From Escherichia coli (GTDB lineage Bacteria; Pseudomonadota; Gammaproteobacteria; Enterobacterales; Enterobacteriaceae), in NCBI RefSeq assembly GCF_002854065.1, contig NZ_CP024147.1: a DNA stretch of 64,000 nucleotides. One strand, given 5' to 3'. Below, one piece after another: positions 43,545 to 48,606 of the stretch. A model generated the notes under the pieces. It did no database searches. It saw nothing but the letters and a program-made list of their open reading frames with translations, and was not told the origin of the DNA. The translations under genes and the position numbers were made by a program. Position 1 is the first letter of the stretch. The number at the start of each line of letters is the position of its first letter.

Positions 43545-43597
43545 ATACATCATTCAAATCAATATCACCTCGGCATACATCCATCCAAAATAATAAT

Positions 43598-43634
43598 CGT
43601 GATCGATCGATTAATAATAACCGATCGATCACGG
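43598..43634. promoter_or_regulatory. 12-bp-arm perfect palindrome containing four GATC sites (terminator and/or operator)
   Basis: cgtgatcgatcg-attaataataac-cgatcgatcacg downstream of rlmC, upstream of PTS operon. Confidence 0.4.
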
Positions 43635-44104
43635 TTATATATTGCTCTATTTTTGCAAATCAAATCACAAATAATCAAATAAGATCTTTAATTGAACTGT
43701 TTTGATTACTACAGTGCACTTACCGAATACATACAGAGGCATTGCTTAGCGAAACACAAAATTTCCTGAGACATTATTAACGTCAGCAGAAGGTTCATGC
43801 ATTGACAACGGAAATGTACGCTTATGGAGGGCGTTCCGACGATGTTTGCCAAATTCATAGATGTTATTCAAACGTTTTTAACTGAACCGGCAATTTTAAT
43901 TGGTTTGCTGGTGGGTATTGGTTATGCCCTTGATAAGAAATCGCCAATAAAAATTATTACCGGCATGGTCAGCGCCATGGTGGGATTAATGATGGTGTTA
44001 TTTGGTGGTTTCCAGTTTTCCGCAACATTTAAACCGGTAGCAGAAGCCGGGTGATGCTGCCAACTTACTGATTTAGTGTATGATGGTGTTTTTGAGGTGC
44101 TCCA

Positions 44105-44380
44105 GTGGCTTCTGTTTCTATCAGCTGTCCCTCCTGTTCAGCTACTGACGGGGTGGTGCGTAACGGCAAAAGCACTGCCGGACATCAGCGCTATCTCTGC
44201 TCTCACTGCCGTAAAACATGGCAACTGCAGTTCACTTACACCGCTTCTCAACCCGGTACGCACCAGAAAATCATTGATATGGCCATGAATGGCGTTGGAT
44301 GCCGGGCAACCGCCCGCATTATGGGCGTTGGCCTCAACACGATTTTCCGCCATTTAAAAAACTCAGGCCGCAGTCGGTAA
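44105..44380 (+). CDS. insA: IS1 InsA
   Basis: 91 aa with CxxC zinc finger; part of IS1. Confidence 0.9.
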
Positions 44381-44802
44381 CCTCGCGCATACAGCCGGGC
44401 AGTGACGTCATCGTCTGCGCGGAAATGGACGAACAGTGGGGATACGTCGGGGCTAAATCGCGCCAGCGCTGGCTGTTTTACGCGTATGACAGGCTCCGGA
44501 AGACGGTTGTTGCGCACGTATTCGGTGAACGCACTATGGCGACGCTGGGGCGTCTTATGAGCCTGCTGTCACCCTTTGACGTGGTGATATGGATGACGGA
44601 TGGCTGGCCGCTGTATGAATCCCGCCTGAAGGGAAAGCTGCACGTAATCAGCAAGCGATATACGCAGCGAATTGAGCGGCATAACCTGAATCTGAGGCAG
44701 CACCTGGCACGGCTGGGACGGAAGTCGCTGTCGTTCTCAAAATCGGTGGAGCTGCATGACAAAGTCATCGGGCATTATCTGAACATAAAACACTATCAAT
44801 AA
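44299..44802 (+). CDS. insB: IS1 InsB (transposase catalytic portion, expressed as InsAB by -1 frameshift)
   Basis: 167 aa ORF; A6C slippery motif TTAAAAAAC at 44354-44362. Confidence 0.9.
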
Positions 44803-45965
44803 GTTGGAGTCATTACCCAGAAGCCGTAAGTAAAGCCTATGGTGTTCACGGATATTTAATGGATTCCTACGCAATGAAAGCGGCAACGCAAATTGCATTG
44901 GGGGATAATTTTGGTTATGTCGGGTATGTATTTGTACTGGCGTTTTTTACCAACCTGCTGCTGGTATTATTTGGTCGGTATACTGGTGCCAAAGGGATAT
45001 TTTTGACAGGGAATACCGGTGTTTCACATTCTCAGGCGGTATTATGGTTGATTGTCTTTTGGCTGGGTTTTAGCTGGACTACATCCATTATTATTGCCGG
45101 AATATTAACGGGTGTATTCTGGGCGTTCTTCACCACGCTCATTGTTAAGCCCATTGCCAAAGTTACCAAAGATGCCGGTTTTACCATTGCTCATAACCAG
45201 ATGTTGGGATTGTGGTTTTTCTCCAAATTCGCCCATAAATTTGGTGACCCTGAAAAGCACGATGCTGAAAACCTGAAACTTCCCGGGTGGCTGGCGATTT
45301 TTAACCATAACGTAACGGCTATCGCCATTGTGATGACGCTGTTTGTCGGTGGTTTCTTGCTATCAACGGGTATCGATAATGTCCAGTTAATGGCGAAAGG
45401 CAAGCCCTGGTACATCTATATCATCAACCTTGGCTTACAGTTCTCCATGTATATGGTCATTCTGCTGCAGGGTGTGCGCATGATGGTGGGCGAAATTAAC
45501 GGTTCGTTTAAAGGCTGGCAAGATCGCTTTATTCCTAACGCTATTCCTGCTGTCGATGTTGCAGCGCTGTTACCTTTTTCACCCAATGCCACAACGTTAG
45601 GCTTCGTCTTCTGTACTTTTGGCACCATTTTTTCGATGGGGATCTTATTACTGGTTCACAGCCCAATTATGGTATTGCCTGGCTTTGTACCTCTGTTTTT
45701 CTCTGGCGGTCCAATTGGCGTATTAGCAAACCGCATGGGCGGATACCGTTCCGTAATTATCTGTACGTTCTTGCTGGGTATTATTCAGACCTTTGGTACG
45801 GTGTGGGCTATTCCGTTAACCGGGCTTGCTGAAAATGGCGTCGGCTGGACAGGAATATTTGACTGGGCAACCGTATGGCCTGCTATTTGTGAAGTTCTGA
45901 AATTTATCGCTGCAACATTCCATCTTGGTCCTTACGCGGGTTAATTAAATATTAAGGGTTTAAAA

Positions 45966-46286
45966 ATGAAAGATACAATTAATATTCTGTTTGTCTGTGG
46001 TTACGGTGTAGGCAGTAGCGTTATGTTACAAACGGTCGTTAAAAAAGCGCTGACCAAATATGATTTCAAAGTTGAAATGGAACATACCGCCGCAGGTGAA
46101 GTCGGCGGATTTACCGACTGGGCGGATATTTTTGCTATTTCCAAAAAATTACTCGATGTGGTTAGTCTTGACCCGAAACAAGGGCAATATCTGATCCCGA
46201 TAGAGAATATTATGGACGGTGAAACTATTGGTCAGCAAATTTATGAAGTGGTTCAGCAACATTATCCGCATTTAATTAATCAATAA
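45966..46286 (+). CDS. PTS EIIB, ascorbate (UlaB/SgaB) family
   Basis: 106 aa; N-terminal ILFVCGYGVGSS phospho-cysteine loop. Confidence 0.75.
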   Translation: MKDTINILFVCGYGVGSSVMLQTVVKKALTKYDFKVEMEHTAAGEVGGFTDWADIFAISKKLLDVVSLDPKQGQYLIPIENIMDGETIGQQIYEVVQQHYPHLINQ

Positions 46287-46353
46287 GGTAGGGCGTAATG
46301 AGAGCGATTATTCTGCTGTTCGATAGTCTGAATAAACGGGTAATGACTCCAAC

Positions 46354-46857
46354 TTATTGATAGTGTTTTATGTTCAGATAATGCCCGATGACTTTGTCAT
46401 GCAGCTCCACCGATTTTGAGAACGACAGCGACTTCCGTCCCAGCCGTGCCAGGTGCTGCCTCAGATTCAGGTTATGCCGCTCAATTCGCTGCGTATATCG
46501 CTTGCTGATTACGTGCAGCTTTCCCTTCAGGCGGGATTCATACAGCGGCCAGCCATCCGTCATCCATATCACCACGTCAAAGGGTGACAGCAGGCTCATA
46601 AGACGCCCCAGCGTCGCCATAGTGCGTTCACCGAATACGTGCGCAACAACCGTCTTCCGGAGCCTGTCATACGCGTAAAACAGCCAGCGCTGGCGCGATT
46701 TAGCCCCGACGTATCCCCACTGTTCGTCCATTTCCGCGCAGACGATGACGTCACTGCCCGGCTGTATGCGCGAGGTTACCGACTGCGGCCTGAGTTTTTT
46801 AAATGGCGGAAAATCGTGTTGAGGCCAACGCCCATAATGCGGGCGGTTGCCCGGCAT
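46354..46857 (-). CDS. insB: IS1 InsB
   Basis: Identical protein to copy 1 InsB. Confidence 0.9.
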
Positions 46858-47051
46858 CCAACGCCATTCATGGCCATATCAATGATTTTCTGGTGCGTAC
46901 CGGGTTGAGAAGCGGTGTAAGTGAACTGCAGTTGCCATGTTTTACGGCAGTGAGAGCAGAGATAGCGCTGATGTCCGGCAGTGCTTTTGCCGTTACGCAC
47001 CACCCCGTCAGTAGCTGAACAGGAGGGACAGCTGATAGAAACAGAAGCCAC
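46776..47051 (-). CDS. insA: IS1 InsA
   Basis: Identical protein to copy 1 InsA. Confidence 0.9.
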
Positions 47052-48568
47052 TGGAGCACCTCAAAAACACCATCATACACTAAATCAGTAAGTTGGCAGC
47101 ATCACCGAATAAACGTTATCTGCCACCTTATGGCGATGCGTTAACCAAAGCGCCTAATTTCCAACGTCTGGCGGCTCATGCCGCCACCTTTGAAAACAGT
47201 TACGTCGGCAGTATGCCGTGTATGCCTGCCCGGCGGGAGTTGCATACCGGGCGATGTAACTTCCTGCATCGGGAGTGGGGGCCGTTAGAACCGTTTGACG
47301 ATTCCATGCCGGAGCTGCTTAAAAAGGCGGGGATCTATACCCACCTGATAAGCGATCATTTGCATTACTGGGAAGATGGCGGCGGGAATTATCATAATCG
47401 CTACAGTTCGTGGGAGATTGTGCGCGGACAGAAAGGCGATCACTGGCATGCAAGCGTTGCGCAACCGCCTATTCCCGAGGTGCTACGGGTGCCGCAAAAG
47501 CAGACCGGTGGCGGTGTTTCTGGTCTGTGGCGCCATGACTGGGCAAACCGGGAATATATTCAGCAGGAAGCGGATTTTCCACAAACTAAAGTGTTTGATG
47601 CAGGCTGTGCCTTTATCCACAAAAATCACGCGGAAGATAACTGGTTATTGCAGGTCGAAACGTTTGATCCGCACGAGCCGTTTCACACAACGGAAGAGTA
47701 TCTTTCCTTGTATGAAGATAACTGGGATGGACCGCATTATGACTGGCCGCGTGGCCGGGTGCAGGAAAGCGACGAGGCCGTGGAGCACATCCGTTGCCGG
47801 TATCGTTCGCTGGTGTCGATGTGCGATCGCAACCTGGGGCGCATTCTCGACCTGATGGATGAGCACGATCTGTGGCGAGATACCATGCTGATTGTCGGCA
47901 CTGACCACGGCTTTTTACTCGGTGAGCATGGCTGGTGGGCGAAAAACCAGATGCCTTATTACAACGAAGTTGCCAATAATCCGTTGTTTATCTGGGACCC
48001 GCGCAGTGGTGTAAAAGGAGAGCGGCGACAGGCACTGGTACAAATGATCGACTGGGCGCCAACGTTGTATGACTTTTTTCAACAGCCAGTGCCGCCCGAT
48101 GTGCAGGGGCAACCGCTGGCGAAAACGGTCAGTCACGATGAACCAGTACGCAGCTCGGCGATGTTTGGTGTCTTCAGTGGTCATGTTAACGTAACTGATG
48201 GGCGTTTTGTCTATATGCGTGCAGCGCTGCCGGGGCGTGAGGATGATATTGCCAACTACACGTTGATGTCCTGCAAAATGAACAGCCGCTATCCGGTGGA
48301 TGAGATGCGGGCTTTATCGCTGGCCCCACCGTTTCGTTTTACCAAAGGGTTACAGGTATTACGCATCCCGGCACAGGAAAAATATAAGGGGTTGAATCAG
48401 TTTGGTCATTTGCTGTTTGAGCTGCAAAACGATCCGCAGCAGCTACATCCGATTCATGATGATGTGATCGAGTCCCGGATGATCGCGTTGCTGATTCAGT
48501 TGATGAAAGATAATGATGCGCCGCCAGAGCAGTTTCAGCGCCTGGGATTAGCGTAGAGAAGTGATTTT

Positions 48569-48597
48569 GCCGGAGTGGGTGTTCGCCCACTCCGGCA
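48569..48597. terminator. Bidirectional terminator hairpin between sulfatase and artJ
   Basis: gccggagtggg-tgttc-gcccactccggc. Confidence 0.5.
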
Positions 48598-48606
48598 AAT
48601 GAATAA

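Follow-up and report, generated by a model that had tools for sequence, protein, structure and literature searches.

The phosphotransferase system (PTS) closest to the locus described here is the Ula system for L-ascorbate, and E. coli carries ulaR-ulaG-ulaABCDEF, in which the regulator UlaR is released by its inducer, L-ascorbate-6-phosphate (L-ascorbate-6-P). The permease UlaA contacts vitamin C through T86, Y87, H135, I136, Q139, H194, Q195, D314, I358, F362 and M410, and its residues S59 and R288 act during transport (PMC6048161). A PTS/sulfatase island of Streptococcus pneumoniae contributes to virulence in mice (PMC3283741), and a 2011 survey of ula regulons recorded a sulfatase gene 'inserted' in the ula regulon of Sebaldella, without interpretation. 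In this study, an accessory islet between rlmC and artJ was analyzed in a stretch of 64,000 nucleotides of E. coli DNA (contig NZ_CP024147.1, assembly GCF_002854065.1), which is referred to as the window. The islet is a three-gene operon, broken by two copies of IS1 in this genome, and encodes a UlaA-like enzyme IIC (EIIC), an enzyme IIB (EIIB) and a sulfatase. Comparative analysis of intact copies indicated that the operon very probably serves PTS uptake and cytoplasmic desulfation of a sulfated substrate.

Searching 5.8 billion proteins for homologues of the sulfatase revealed a tight family, with members of 61-67% identity in Clostridia, Lachnospiraceae, Erysipelotrichaceae, Bacillaceae and Streptococcus. 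Neighbor clustering was carried out on 63 loci from species-representative genomes, 49 of which hold orthologues with at least 54% identity (eight enterobacterial and 41 other loci). The EIIC gene is adjacent to the sulfatase gene in all eight enterobacterial loci and in 24 of the 41 others (54-67% identity), and these 41 loci include a DeoR regulator in 20 cases and a separate EIIA gene in 14. The usual order in Firmicutes, found in Clostridium porci and many others, is DeoR-EIIC-EIIB-sulfatase-EIIA, with genes that overlap or nearly abut, and in two proteins (P0044 and P0082) the sulfatase continues at its C-terminus into a fused EIIA domain (PF00359). The initial annotation had suggested from the window itself that uptake and desulfation are coupled, and this suggestion was upheld by the conservation of the order EIIC-EIIB-sulfatase(-EIIA) from Enterobacteriaceae to Firmicutes and by the two EIIA-sulfatase fusions. 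Relatives with 47-56% identity (Brachyspira, Paenibacillus and Microbacterium) have ABC importers adjacent instead, and no adjacent PTS was found in SAR86 relatives. The family as a whole looks like one of importer-coupled cytoplasmic sulfatases.

The reconstructed sulfatase consists of 493 amino acids and matches PF00884 (2e-28) and SGSH_C (9e-09) in Pfam. Because the catalytic domain begins at residue 3-4, which leaves no room for a signal peptide, the predicted enzyme must act in the cytoplasm. The C-x-P-x-R formylglycine signature noted in the initial annotation is indeed present as C49-M-P-A-R53. This motif, D9 and D277-H278 show no variation among 16 family members and align with those of solved sulfatases. 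The second S1 signature (G-[YV]-x-[ST]-x-x-x-G-K-x-x-H) is altered, with Asp94 at the position of the Lys and the His retained, and S93-D94-H95 (reconstructed coordinates 46574-46582) lies inside the invariant motif SDHLHYWEDGG. Asp94 was placed by single-sequence and profile alignments to 7P24, 5G2V and 4UPL, and it might relate to the binding of a phosphorylated substrate. An AlphaFold model of the protein (mean predicted local distance difference test (pLDDT) score 74.6, predicted template-modeling score 0.83) matched S1 sulfatases of many subfamilies about equally in a Foldseek search of the PDB (probability 1.0, template-modeling score 0.53-0.65), with the top 50 matches spanning many S1 subfamilies and the related phosphonate monoester hydrolases. 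The nearest solved structures in the profile search were those of the dimeric arylsulfatases SpAS1 and SpAS2 (4UPI, 4UPL). The protein scored under every curated NCBIfam cutoff, with a sub-threshold match to the phosphoric/sulfuric ester hydrolase PehA. By its fold and its first signature it is predicted to be an S1 sulfatase that lacks the canonical Lys of the second signature.

No sulfatase maturase gene was found in the window or in the islet. Among the relatives, a gene for an anaerobic sulfatase-maturating enzyme (anSME) is adjacent in eight loci, those of Leclercia and seven Gram-positive bacteria, and both of the two anSMEs tested scored above the TIGR03942 cutoff; a formylglycine-generating enzyme (FGE; PF03781, 8e-80) is adjacent in two aerobic Bacillaceae, Neobacillus and Bacillus FJAT-50079. 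An exporter of the TauE/SafE (PF01925, 6e-27) or ChrA-like type is encoded within about 8 kb of the sulfatase gene in nine of the 41 non-enterobacterial loci, directly 3' of the sulfatase/EIIA genes in most of the nine, and these exporters fit a role in disposal of the released sulfate. The comparative data suggest that the third gene of the operon encodes a true formylglycine sulfatase, predicted to release sulfate in the cytoplasm.

The EIIC protein matches the Pfam family EIIC-GAT (PF03611; 6.4e-97, residues 18-412) and the solved UlaA structures of E. coli and Pasteurella multocida (4RP8, E 1.2e-92; 5ZOV, E 2.1e-93), with 37-38% identity to E. coli UlaA. The only NCBIfam cutoff that it passes is that of the generic 'PTS sugar transporter subunit IIC' (NF009550, 958 bits), and its scores lie under the cutoffs of the curated ascorbate models (321 bits vs 380 for NF006919, and 353 vs 687 for NF007094). 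Compared with UlaA, the protein carries the substitutions S59G, H135N, I136T, Q139S, Q195N and M410I, and keeps Y87, H194, D314, F362 and R288. The same residues are retained in a clade of 27 sulfatase-linked EIICs, in which T86 is mostly Ser (Pro in two sequences), S59 is replaced by G, H135 by N, I136 by T or A, Q139 by S or A and Q195 by N, with single-sequence exceptions, all of these replacements being smaller residues. Because it has neither the full set of ascorbate contacts nor a score above an ascorbate-model cutoff, EIIC is classified here as a clear UlaA homologue but not as an ascorbate-specific UlaA orthologue.

To survey the EIIC family, 1.84 billion cluster representatives (50% identity) were searched exhaustively with HMMER. 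Among these representatives, neighboring EIIC clades with 37-41% identity keep the ascorbate signature H-[IV]-Q...Q, and the N-[TA]-[SA]...N set is restricted to the clade of the islet protein and its one close representative, P0121, whose contig also encodes a DeoR regulator, an EIIB and the start of a sulfatase. More distant EIIC-GAT clades have quite different pockets. The nearest representative without a link to a sulfatase, P0123, is located on a 1.7-kb contig that is too short for context. A pocket in which half of the ascorbate site is kept and one face is uniformly trimmed would plausibly be expected of a transporter for a substituted ascorbate.

The EIIB protein is 28% identical to UlaB, and its Cys loop aligns with the UlaB Cys. 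No EIIA gene was found in the window or in any of the eight enterobacterial loci, which have EIIC and EIIB but neither a DeoR or other regulator nor catabolic enzyme genes of their own; in Firmicute relatives EIIA is separate or fused. The EIIA proteins of the cassettes share 28-41% identity with UlaC, and two of the three that were tested had the ascorbate IIA model as their top NCBIfam match. UlaC is the obvious candidate to supply EIIA in trans in Enterobacteriaceae. Because the enterobacterial cassettes carry no EIIA, regulator or catabolic enzymes, they fit the description of a plug-in that makes use of UlaC and the ula enzymes, and perhaps of UlaR. The possibility, raised in the initial annotation, that intact loci include an EIIA, a regulator or a maturase applied to Firmicutes; in Enterobacteriaceae neither an EIIA nor a regulator was present in any locus, and a maturase gene occurs near the Leclercia cassette.

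An indication of the substrate was provided by loci in which the cassette is combined with ula genes. In Neobacillus niacini (L029) the order is EIIA-EIIC-EIIB-sulfatase-UlaG-EIIB'-UlaD-UlaE-UlaF, with the FGE gene divergent and gaps of 6-26 nt around the sulfatase gene; in Bacillus sp. SD088 (L033), DeoR-EIIA-UlaG-UlaD-UlaE is divergent from EIIC-EIIB-sulfatase; and in a metagenome-assembled genome of Clostridium (L046), UlaG-EIIA-EIIC-EIIB-sulfatase-x-UlaF-UlaE is followed by transketolase genes. In these three loci the sulfatase-linked EIIC is the sole permease of the operon. In Bacillus sp. FJAT-50079 (L043), UlaD-UlaE-UlaF precedes two tandem EIIC-EIIB-sulfatase sets. The assignments of the ula genes were supported by NCBIfam scores of 663 and 653 bits for UlaG (cutoff 306), 393 for AraD/UlaF, 370 for UlaE and 329 for UlaD, and no catabolic genes other than ulaG/D/E/F were found repeatedly with the cassette. 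Elsewhere the cassette is located between unrelated housekeeping genes, such as tlyA-nadK-argR-recN and spoIVB, and stand-alone cassettes are expected if the product feeds a pathway that is encoded elsewhere in the genome.

Ascorbate 2-sulfate is hydrolyzed by mammalian arylsulfatases A and B (ascorbate-2-sulfate sulfohydrolase). The compound is a vitamin C metabolite of animals, and metabolomic studies routinely detect it in mammalian plasma, urine and tissue. In the mechanism proposed here, the UlaA-like EIIC would bind a sulfated ascorbate-type substrate, most plausibly L-ascorbate 2-sulfate, and the UlaB-like EIIB, charged by an EIIA acting in trans (UlaC being the candidate), would phosphorylate it at O6 during transport. 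The cytoplasmic formylglycine sulfatase would then strip the 2-sulfate from the phosphorylated product to yield L-ascorbate-6-P, which the UlaG lactonase and UlaD/E/F would turn into D-xylulose-5-phosphate, and the freed sulfate would be assimilated or exported. Within this scheme, we infer which compound is taken up, whether the sulfatase acts before the lactonase, which EIIA is the donor, and that E. coli employs UlaC, UlaR and UlaG. We regard the chances as evenly balanced that the PTS takes up L-ascorbate 2-sulfate or a close analogue and that desulfation in the cytoplasm then gives L-ascorbate-6-P, which enters the resident Ula pathway. The more complete proposal, a hitherto undescribed bacterial pathway for L-ascorbate 2-sulfate in which a UlaA-derived PTS permease imports the substrate and phosphorylates it at position 6, a new sulfatase subfamily with the Lys-to-Asp change desulfates it, and the product both feeds and induces the Ula regulon, is put forward tentatively, with slightly less than even confidence. 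The initial annotation had proposed a sulfated sugar or sugar acid as the substrate; the sulfated nature of the substrate is retained, and the comparative data narrow the choice to an ascorbate-like compound, most plausibly L-ascorbate 2-sulfate.

Several observations weigh against this assignment. The substrate is deduced solely from gene neighborhood and pocket residues, and that the trimmed pocket could accommodate a 2-sulfate is no more than plausible. The ula genes are located within 8 kb in only seven of the 41 non-enterobacterial loci, most cassettes being stand-alone, and in three Clostridium loci (L030, L034 and L038) the sulfatase gene is found beside ula and transketolase genes with no PTS. 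With Asp94 in place of the conserved Lys, the chemistry of the sulfatase could differ from the standard one, and the closest solved structure has only about 20% identity (range 15-20%). The AlphaFold model has pLDDT values below 50 at residues 44-74, which are active-site loops, and it was used for fold assignment only because the loops of the formylglycine site fall in this range. Finally, local alignment of the islet upstream region with the K-12 ulaG-ulaA spacer gave a score of 25, which 52 of 500 shuffles reached.

The same logic of PTS uptake and desulfation might apply to another substrate whose product would feed a common pathway, for example a sulfated hexose or hexuronate derived from the mucin or glycosaminoglycans of the host, or a different sulfated enediol lactone or sugar acid. 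This explanation is possible but has clearly less than an even chance of being correct. It would account for the predominance of self-contained cassettes with unrelated flanks, as for a common sugar phosphate product, and for the change of half of the UlaA ascorbate contacts; yet the residues that are retained are those of the ascorbate signature, and distant EIIC-GAT members, as described above, have quite different pockets. EIIC scores under every ascorbate NCBIfam cutoff, but two of the three EIIAs tested are closest to the ascorbate IIA model. Gut-associated hosts predominate among the carriers, sulfated host glycans are abundant in the gut, and a non-homologous analogue exists in S. pneumoniae, where a cellobiose-type PTS is combined with a sulfatase, a maturase and TauE (PMC3283741). 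Against these points stands the recurrence of ulaG/D/E/F, and of no other catabolic genes, in the same operon as the cassette.

Another explanation is that the 'sulfatase' is a phosphoric or phosphonic ester hydrolase of the alkaline phosphatase superfamily, which would act on a phospho-substituted compound such as ascorbate 2-phosphate or dephosphorylate the PTS product. The replacement of the sulfate-binding Lys by Asp94 is in keeping with such an activity, as are the sub-threshold match to PehA and the presence of promiscuous arylsulfatases and phosphonate monoester hydrolases among the best profile matches (4UPI, 4UPL, 4UPK and 2VQR). Nevertheless, we consider it unlikely, given that the strong sequence and fold matches are all to sulfatases, that dedicated sulfatase maturases are adjacent, that exporters of the TauE/SafE and ChrA type (for sulfate analogues) lie directly 3' in several loci, and that dephosphorylation of the PTS product would be a futile cycle.

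Of 5,426 complete E. coli genomes, 566 hold the sulfatase segment, and its location is chromosomal in every case. It occurs in two allelic classes, with at least 99% and 91-92% nucleotide identity, both located between rlmC and artJ. E. coli O157:H7 and O145 are among the carriers, and the three genes bear the tags ECs_0940, ECs_0941 and ECs_0942 in O157:H7 Sakai. Salmonella enterica (86% protein identity) and other Escherichia species have the same three genes at the rlmC-artJ site, as does Yokenella, where extra genes accompany them. The cassette of Enterobacter, Leclercia and Silvania is at another genomic site and adjoins a divergent gene for an arylsulfate sulfotransferase (PF05935), so that the cassette and the sulfotransferase may form a small 'sulfate ester' island. 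Yokenella retains a fragment of the arylsulfate sulfotransferase gene (L013:8542-8763), and Leclercia additionally has the anSME gene nearby. Intact versions elsewhere in Enterobacteriaceae, anticipated in the initial annotation, were thus found in E. coli, Salmonella, other Escherichia, Yokenella, Enterobacter, Leclercia and Silvania. The adjacency of EIIC and sulfatase genes is real and not an assembly artefact, as it recurs in the 566 complete genomes of E. coli and in numerous other taxa.

The two E. coli alleles gave dN/dS values of 0.011 for EIIC, 0.035 for EIIB and 0.050 for the sulfatase, and comparison with Salmonella gave 0.02-0.045. All three genes are under strong purifying selection, and because of this selection the module is predicted to be functional where it is intact. 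The alleles CUWW06 (L001) and JNE25-001 (L003) differ by a dS of 0.43-0.81. Because this is far deeper than the usual divergence of E. coli core genes, the alleles appear to be old, or one of them to have been imported from another Escherichia lineage. The view that the operon is a decaying remnant without function in any host, its gene adjacency merely inherited, would suit the IS1 disruption of both large genes in the window, the lack of the islet in about 90% of complete E. coli genomes and the lack of an EIIA and a regulator in enterobacterial copies, but it is very improbable in view of the dN/dS of 0.01-0.05 for all three genes over dS values of 0.4 to more than 2, the full-length open reading frames (ORFs) in hundreds of genomes, and the gene order and gene fusion that are found across phyla. 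General decay is excluded by dN/dS for the intact copies and is true of the copy in this window only.

Dielma fastidiosa, a Clostridia bacterium and Bacillus FJAT-50079 harbor a second type of cassette, which in some cases stands in tandem with the first. Its genes encode a UlaA-like EIIC with Lys in place of Q139, an EIIB and a C-S-P-S-R sulfatase of the classical kind (447-463 amino acids), and a SorC-type regulator follows in Dielma and in the UC5.1 Clostridia locus. Given this second, unrelated cassette type, a PTS and a sulfatase appear to have been paired on more than one occasion within the ascorbate PTS family. In the three Clostridium loci without a PTS (L030, L034 and L038), a GntR gene precedes the sulfatase gene at the end of a cluster with UlaG, UlaF/AraD, transketolase subunits and a fragment of a TctA-like transporter. 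These clusters also encode a protein of 340-360 amino acids without an NCBIfam match (cluster 32), which is found as well 3' of the sulfatase gene of L046.

The features of the islet and the compared loci are listed in the table below.

Table. Coordinates of the rlmC-artJ interval in the window and of features in related loci (positions with an L prefix refer to the related locus named)
Feature	Position	Strand	Description
rlmC	42417..43544	+	Intact left flank; 375-amino-acid ORF; named rlmC in matching E. coli genomes
Near-perfect palindrome	43593..43638		21+21 nt, ATAATCGTGATCGATCGATTA / TAACCGATCGATCACGGTTAT; just 3' of rlmC
Upstream block	43650..43719	+	70 bp; likely promoter/operator; contains TGCAAATCAAATCACA at 43654-43669
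EIIC gene, 5' fragment	43842..44049	+	Codons 1-69 of the 441-amino-acid form; Shine-Dalgarno sequence GGAGG at 43826-43830; cut by IS1 copy A
IS1 copy A	44050..44817	+	768 bp, insA/insB'; within EIIC gene; target duplication CAGAAGCCG at 44041-44049 and 44818-44826
EIIC gene, 3' fragment	44818..45944	+	Through stop; rejoins the 5' fragment in frame once IS1 is removed
EIIB gene	45966..46286	+	106 amino acids, intact; phospho-Cys loop VCGYGVGSS
Sulfatase gene, 5' fragment	46298..46338	+	Codons 1-13
IS1 copy B	46339..47106	-	768 bp; within sulfatase gene; target duplication GAATAAACG at 46330-46338 and 47107-47115
Sulfatase gene, 3' fragment	47107..48556	+	Through stop; C49-M-P-A-R53, D277-H278, SDHLHYWEDGG
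Perfect hairpin	48566..48599	.	14-nt arms, 100% complementary; between convergent sulfatase and artJ genes
artJ	48607..49338	-	Intact right flank; 3' end at 48607
Arylsulfate sulfotransferase neighbors	L011:3466-4881, L018:4424-5839, L019		PF05935; divergent to cassette
Second cassette type	L023:12336-16454; L051:12375-about 16400; L043:2692-5908		UlaA-like EIIC, EIIB, C-S-P-S-R sulfatase

The rlmC-artJ interval of the window measures 5,062 bp. In K-12, artJ follows rlmC directly, as the initial annotation stated, and only a spacer of 198 bp lies between the two genes; it consists of repetitive extragenic palindromic (REP) sequence without similarity to the islet, and a search of it for islet remnants found none. 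REP or bacterial interspersed mosaic element (BIME)-type repeats fill the spacer of islet-free genomes (K-12, L078:3147-3344), and the homology between islet-free and islet-bearing genomes ends about 10 nt before the rlmC stop codon and restarts a few nucleotides inside the 3' end of artJ. The initial annotation described about 5 kb as inserted at this site; the extra interval is real, but insertion is not established, as the islet occupies the same site in Salmonella, other Escherichia and Yokenella. Because the rlmC-artJ site is common to several genera, long-standing presence and recurrent loss are favored, and an ancestral islet that K-12-like lineages lost is at least as likely as insertion.

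The two interrupting elements were recognized as IS1 by their length of 768 bp, their insA (91 amino acids) and insB' (167 amino acids) ORFs and the perfect 9-bp duplications at both copies, and the same elements are annotated as IS1 family transposase in E. coli genomes. Copies A and B are exact reverse complements with 100% identity. Because each has its own 9-bp target duplication, they are two independent simple insertions, with no inversion, deletion or recombination between them. The islet was reconstructed by deleting each IS1 together with one copy of its duplication. The resulting sequence of 3,508 bp aligned end to end and without gaps to the intact locus of E. coli CUWW06 with 99.914% identity and three mismatches, which bore out the compact three-gene operon that had been expected once the two IS1 copies were removed; EIIB and the sulfatase are identical to those of CUWW06, and EIIC has three substitutions. 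With IS1 splitting both the EIIC and sulfatase genes, the operon in this window is non-functional, and none of the complete E. coli genomes in the collection searched carries the window's IS1 junction.

The gene starts given in the initial annotation agreed with the reconstruction. The EIIC start at 43842 with its GGAGG sequence is conserved across Enterobacteriaceae, the EIIB start is as given (ORF 45966..46286), and the ATG of the sulfatase gene at 46298 is correct, the only amendment being its distance from the EIIB stop (46286), which is 11 nt and not 12 bp. The PGAP/RefSeq annotation of EIIC in E. coli starts at 43824 (447 amino acids) and the Sakai record uses the form of 441 amino acids. 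Leclercia and Enterobacter have ACG in place of the ATG at 43824, and this ATG is followed by an in-frame TAA in Yokenella; the 441-amino-acid form from the ATG at 43842 is better supported than the 447-amino-acid form.

A third IS1 copy, 99.9% identical to copies A and B, was found at 54662-55429 of the window. Because its flanks, gaaactgcg and agtaatctc, do not form a 9-bp target duplication, this copy suggests that IS1 mediated a deletion or rearrangement between ybjP and ybjQ. The presence of three IS1 copies within about 11 kb (44050-55429) points to an IS1-rich, Shigella-like genome.

The 70-bp block upstream of the operon is conserved in all 13 enterobacterial upstream regions that were aligned, wherever the cassette is located and thus also in Enterobacter, Leclercia and Silvania, and the minus strand of TGCAAATCAAATCACA within it, TGTGA-N6-TTGCA, resembles a CRP site. 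The palindrome just 3' of rlmC could be an operator or a hairpin at the 3' end of rlmC. It is conserved in Escherichia and Salmonella only and is not found at cassettes in other sites; because it is kept only where the cassette follows rlmC, it was rejected as a general operator of the cassette. Control of the islet by UlaR is unsupported, because the upstream similarity to the ulaG-ulaA region is not significant by the shuffling comparison described above; a word TGTGATT-N3-TTTG that the two regions have in common on visual inspection was given no weight. The perfect hairpin between the convergent sulfatase and artJ genes is probably a bidirectional terminator. A search of the interval with Rfam found no structured RNAs, and scans for promoter and terminator consensus sequences gave background levels.

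A search of the accessible literature on ECs0940-0942, on PTS combined with sulfatase and on ulaA combined with sulfatase found no characterization of the locus, the locus tags being mentioned only in a single-nucleotide polymorphism typing paper; the earlier statement that the combination could not be assigned to a characterized E. coli pathway was in agreement with this result. No report on bacterial use or catabolism of ascorbate 2-sulfate was found either. If the proposed pathway is correct, a sulfate ester would for the first time be defined as a PTS substrate, and ECs0940-0942 of O157:H7 and the homologous Salmonella locus would receive their first assigned function. It would also provide a function for a conserved accessory operon of enterohemorrhagic E. 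coli (O157:H7 and O145), Salmonella, Enterobacter and many gut Firmicutes, define a new importer-coupled cytoplasmic branch of S1 sulfatases, and identify microbes as a sink for ascorbate 2-sulfate, which numerous metabolomic studies have measured as a host metabolite. The genome analyzed here is a further example of IS1-driven loss of a catabolic function.

Comparison with the island of S. pneumoniae showed that both systems combine a PTS permease with an intracellular sulfatase and have a nearby maturase and TauE-type exporter, that both are accessory and confined to some strains, and that no substrate has been assigned to the pneumococcal island either; unlike the islet, that island has a PTS of the lactose/cellobiose type, a ROK regulator and no link to ula (PMC3283741). 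The islet enzyme shares its fold, the CxPxR motif, the N-terminal Asp and the D-H ligands with its closest solved relatives among the S1 sulfatases, which are SpAS1 and SpAS2 of Silicibacter pomeroyi (4UPI, 4UPL), the choline sulfatase BetC (6FNY) and the Bacteroides carbohydrate sulfatases 7P24, 5G2V and 7OZ8. It differs from solved S1 sulfatases in its low identity (15-20%), in having S-D-H in place of G-K-x-H, in its predicted cytoplasmic location and in its coupling to importers, which are PTS at 60% identity or more and ABC transporters at 47-56%.

The same chemistry as that proposed for the islet, in which a formylglycine enzyme cleaves the enol sulfate of ascorbate, is performed by mammalian arylsulfatases A and B; unlike the islet enzyme, these are lysosomal, act on the free ester and have no close sequence relationship to it, whereas the islet sulfatase would act in the cytoplasm after phosphorylation by the PTS. 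The likeness to the E. coli Ula PTS extends over several components, in that the islet EIIC is a UlaA homologue of the EIIC-GAT family, its EIIB is UlaB-like with the same Cys loop, the cassette EIIA of its relatives is UlaC-like, and the cassette shares operons with UlaG/D/E/F. The islet is distinguished from Ula by the sulfatase gene placed among its PTS genes, by the coordinated change to smaller pocket residues and by the enterobacterial form of its cassette, which comes without its own EIIA, regulator and catabolic genes.

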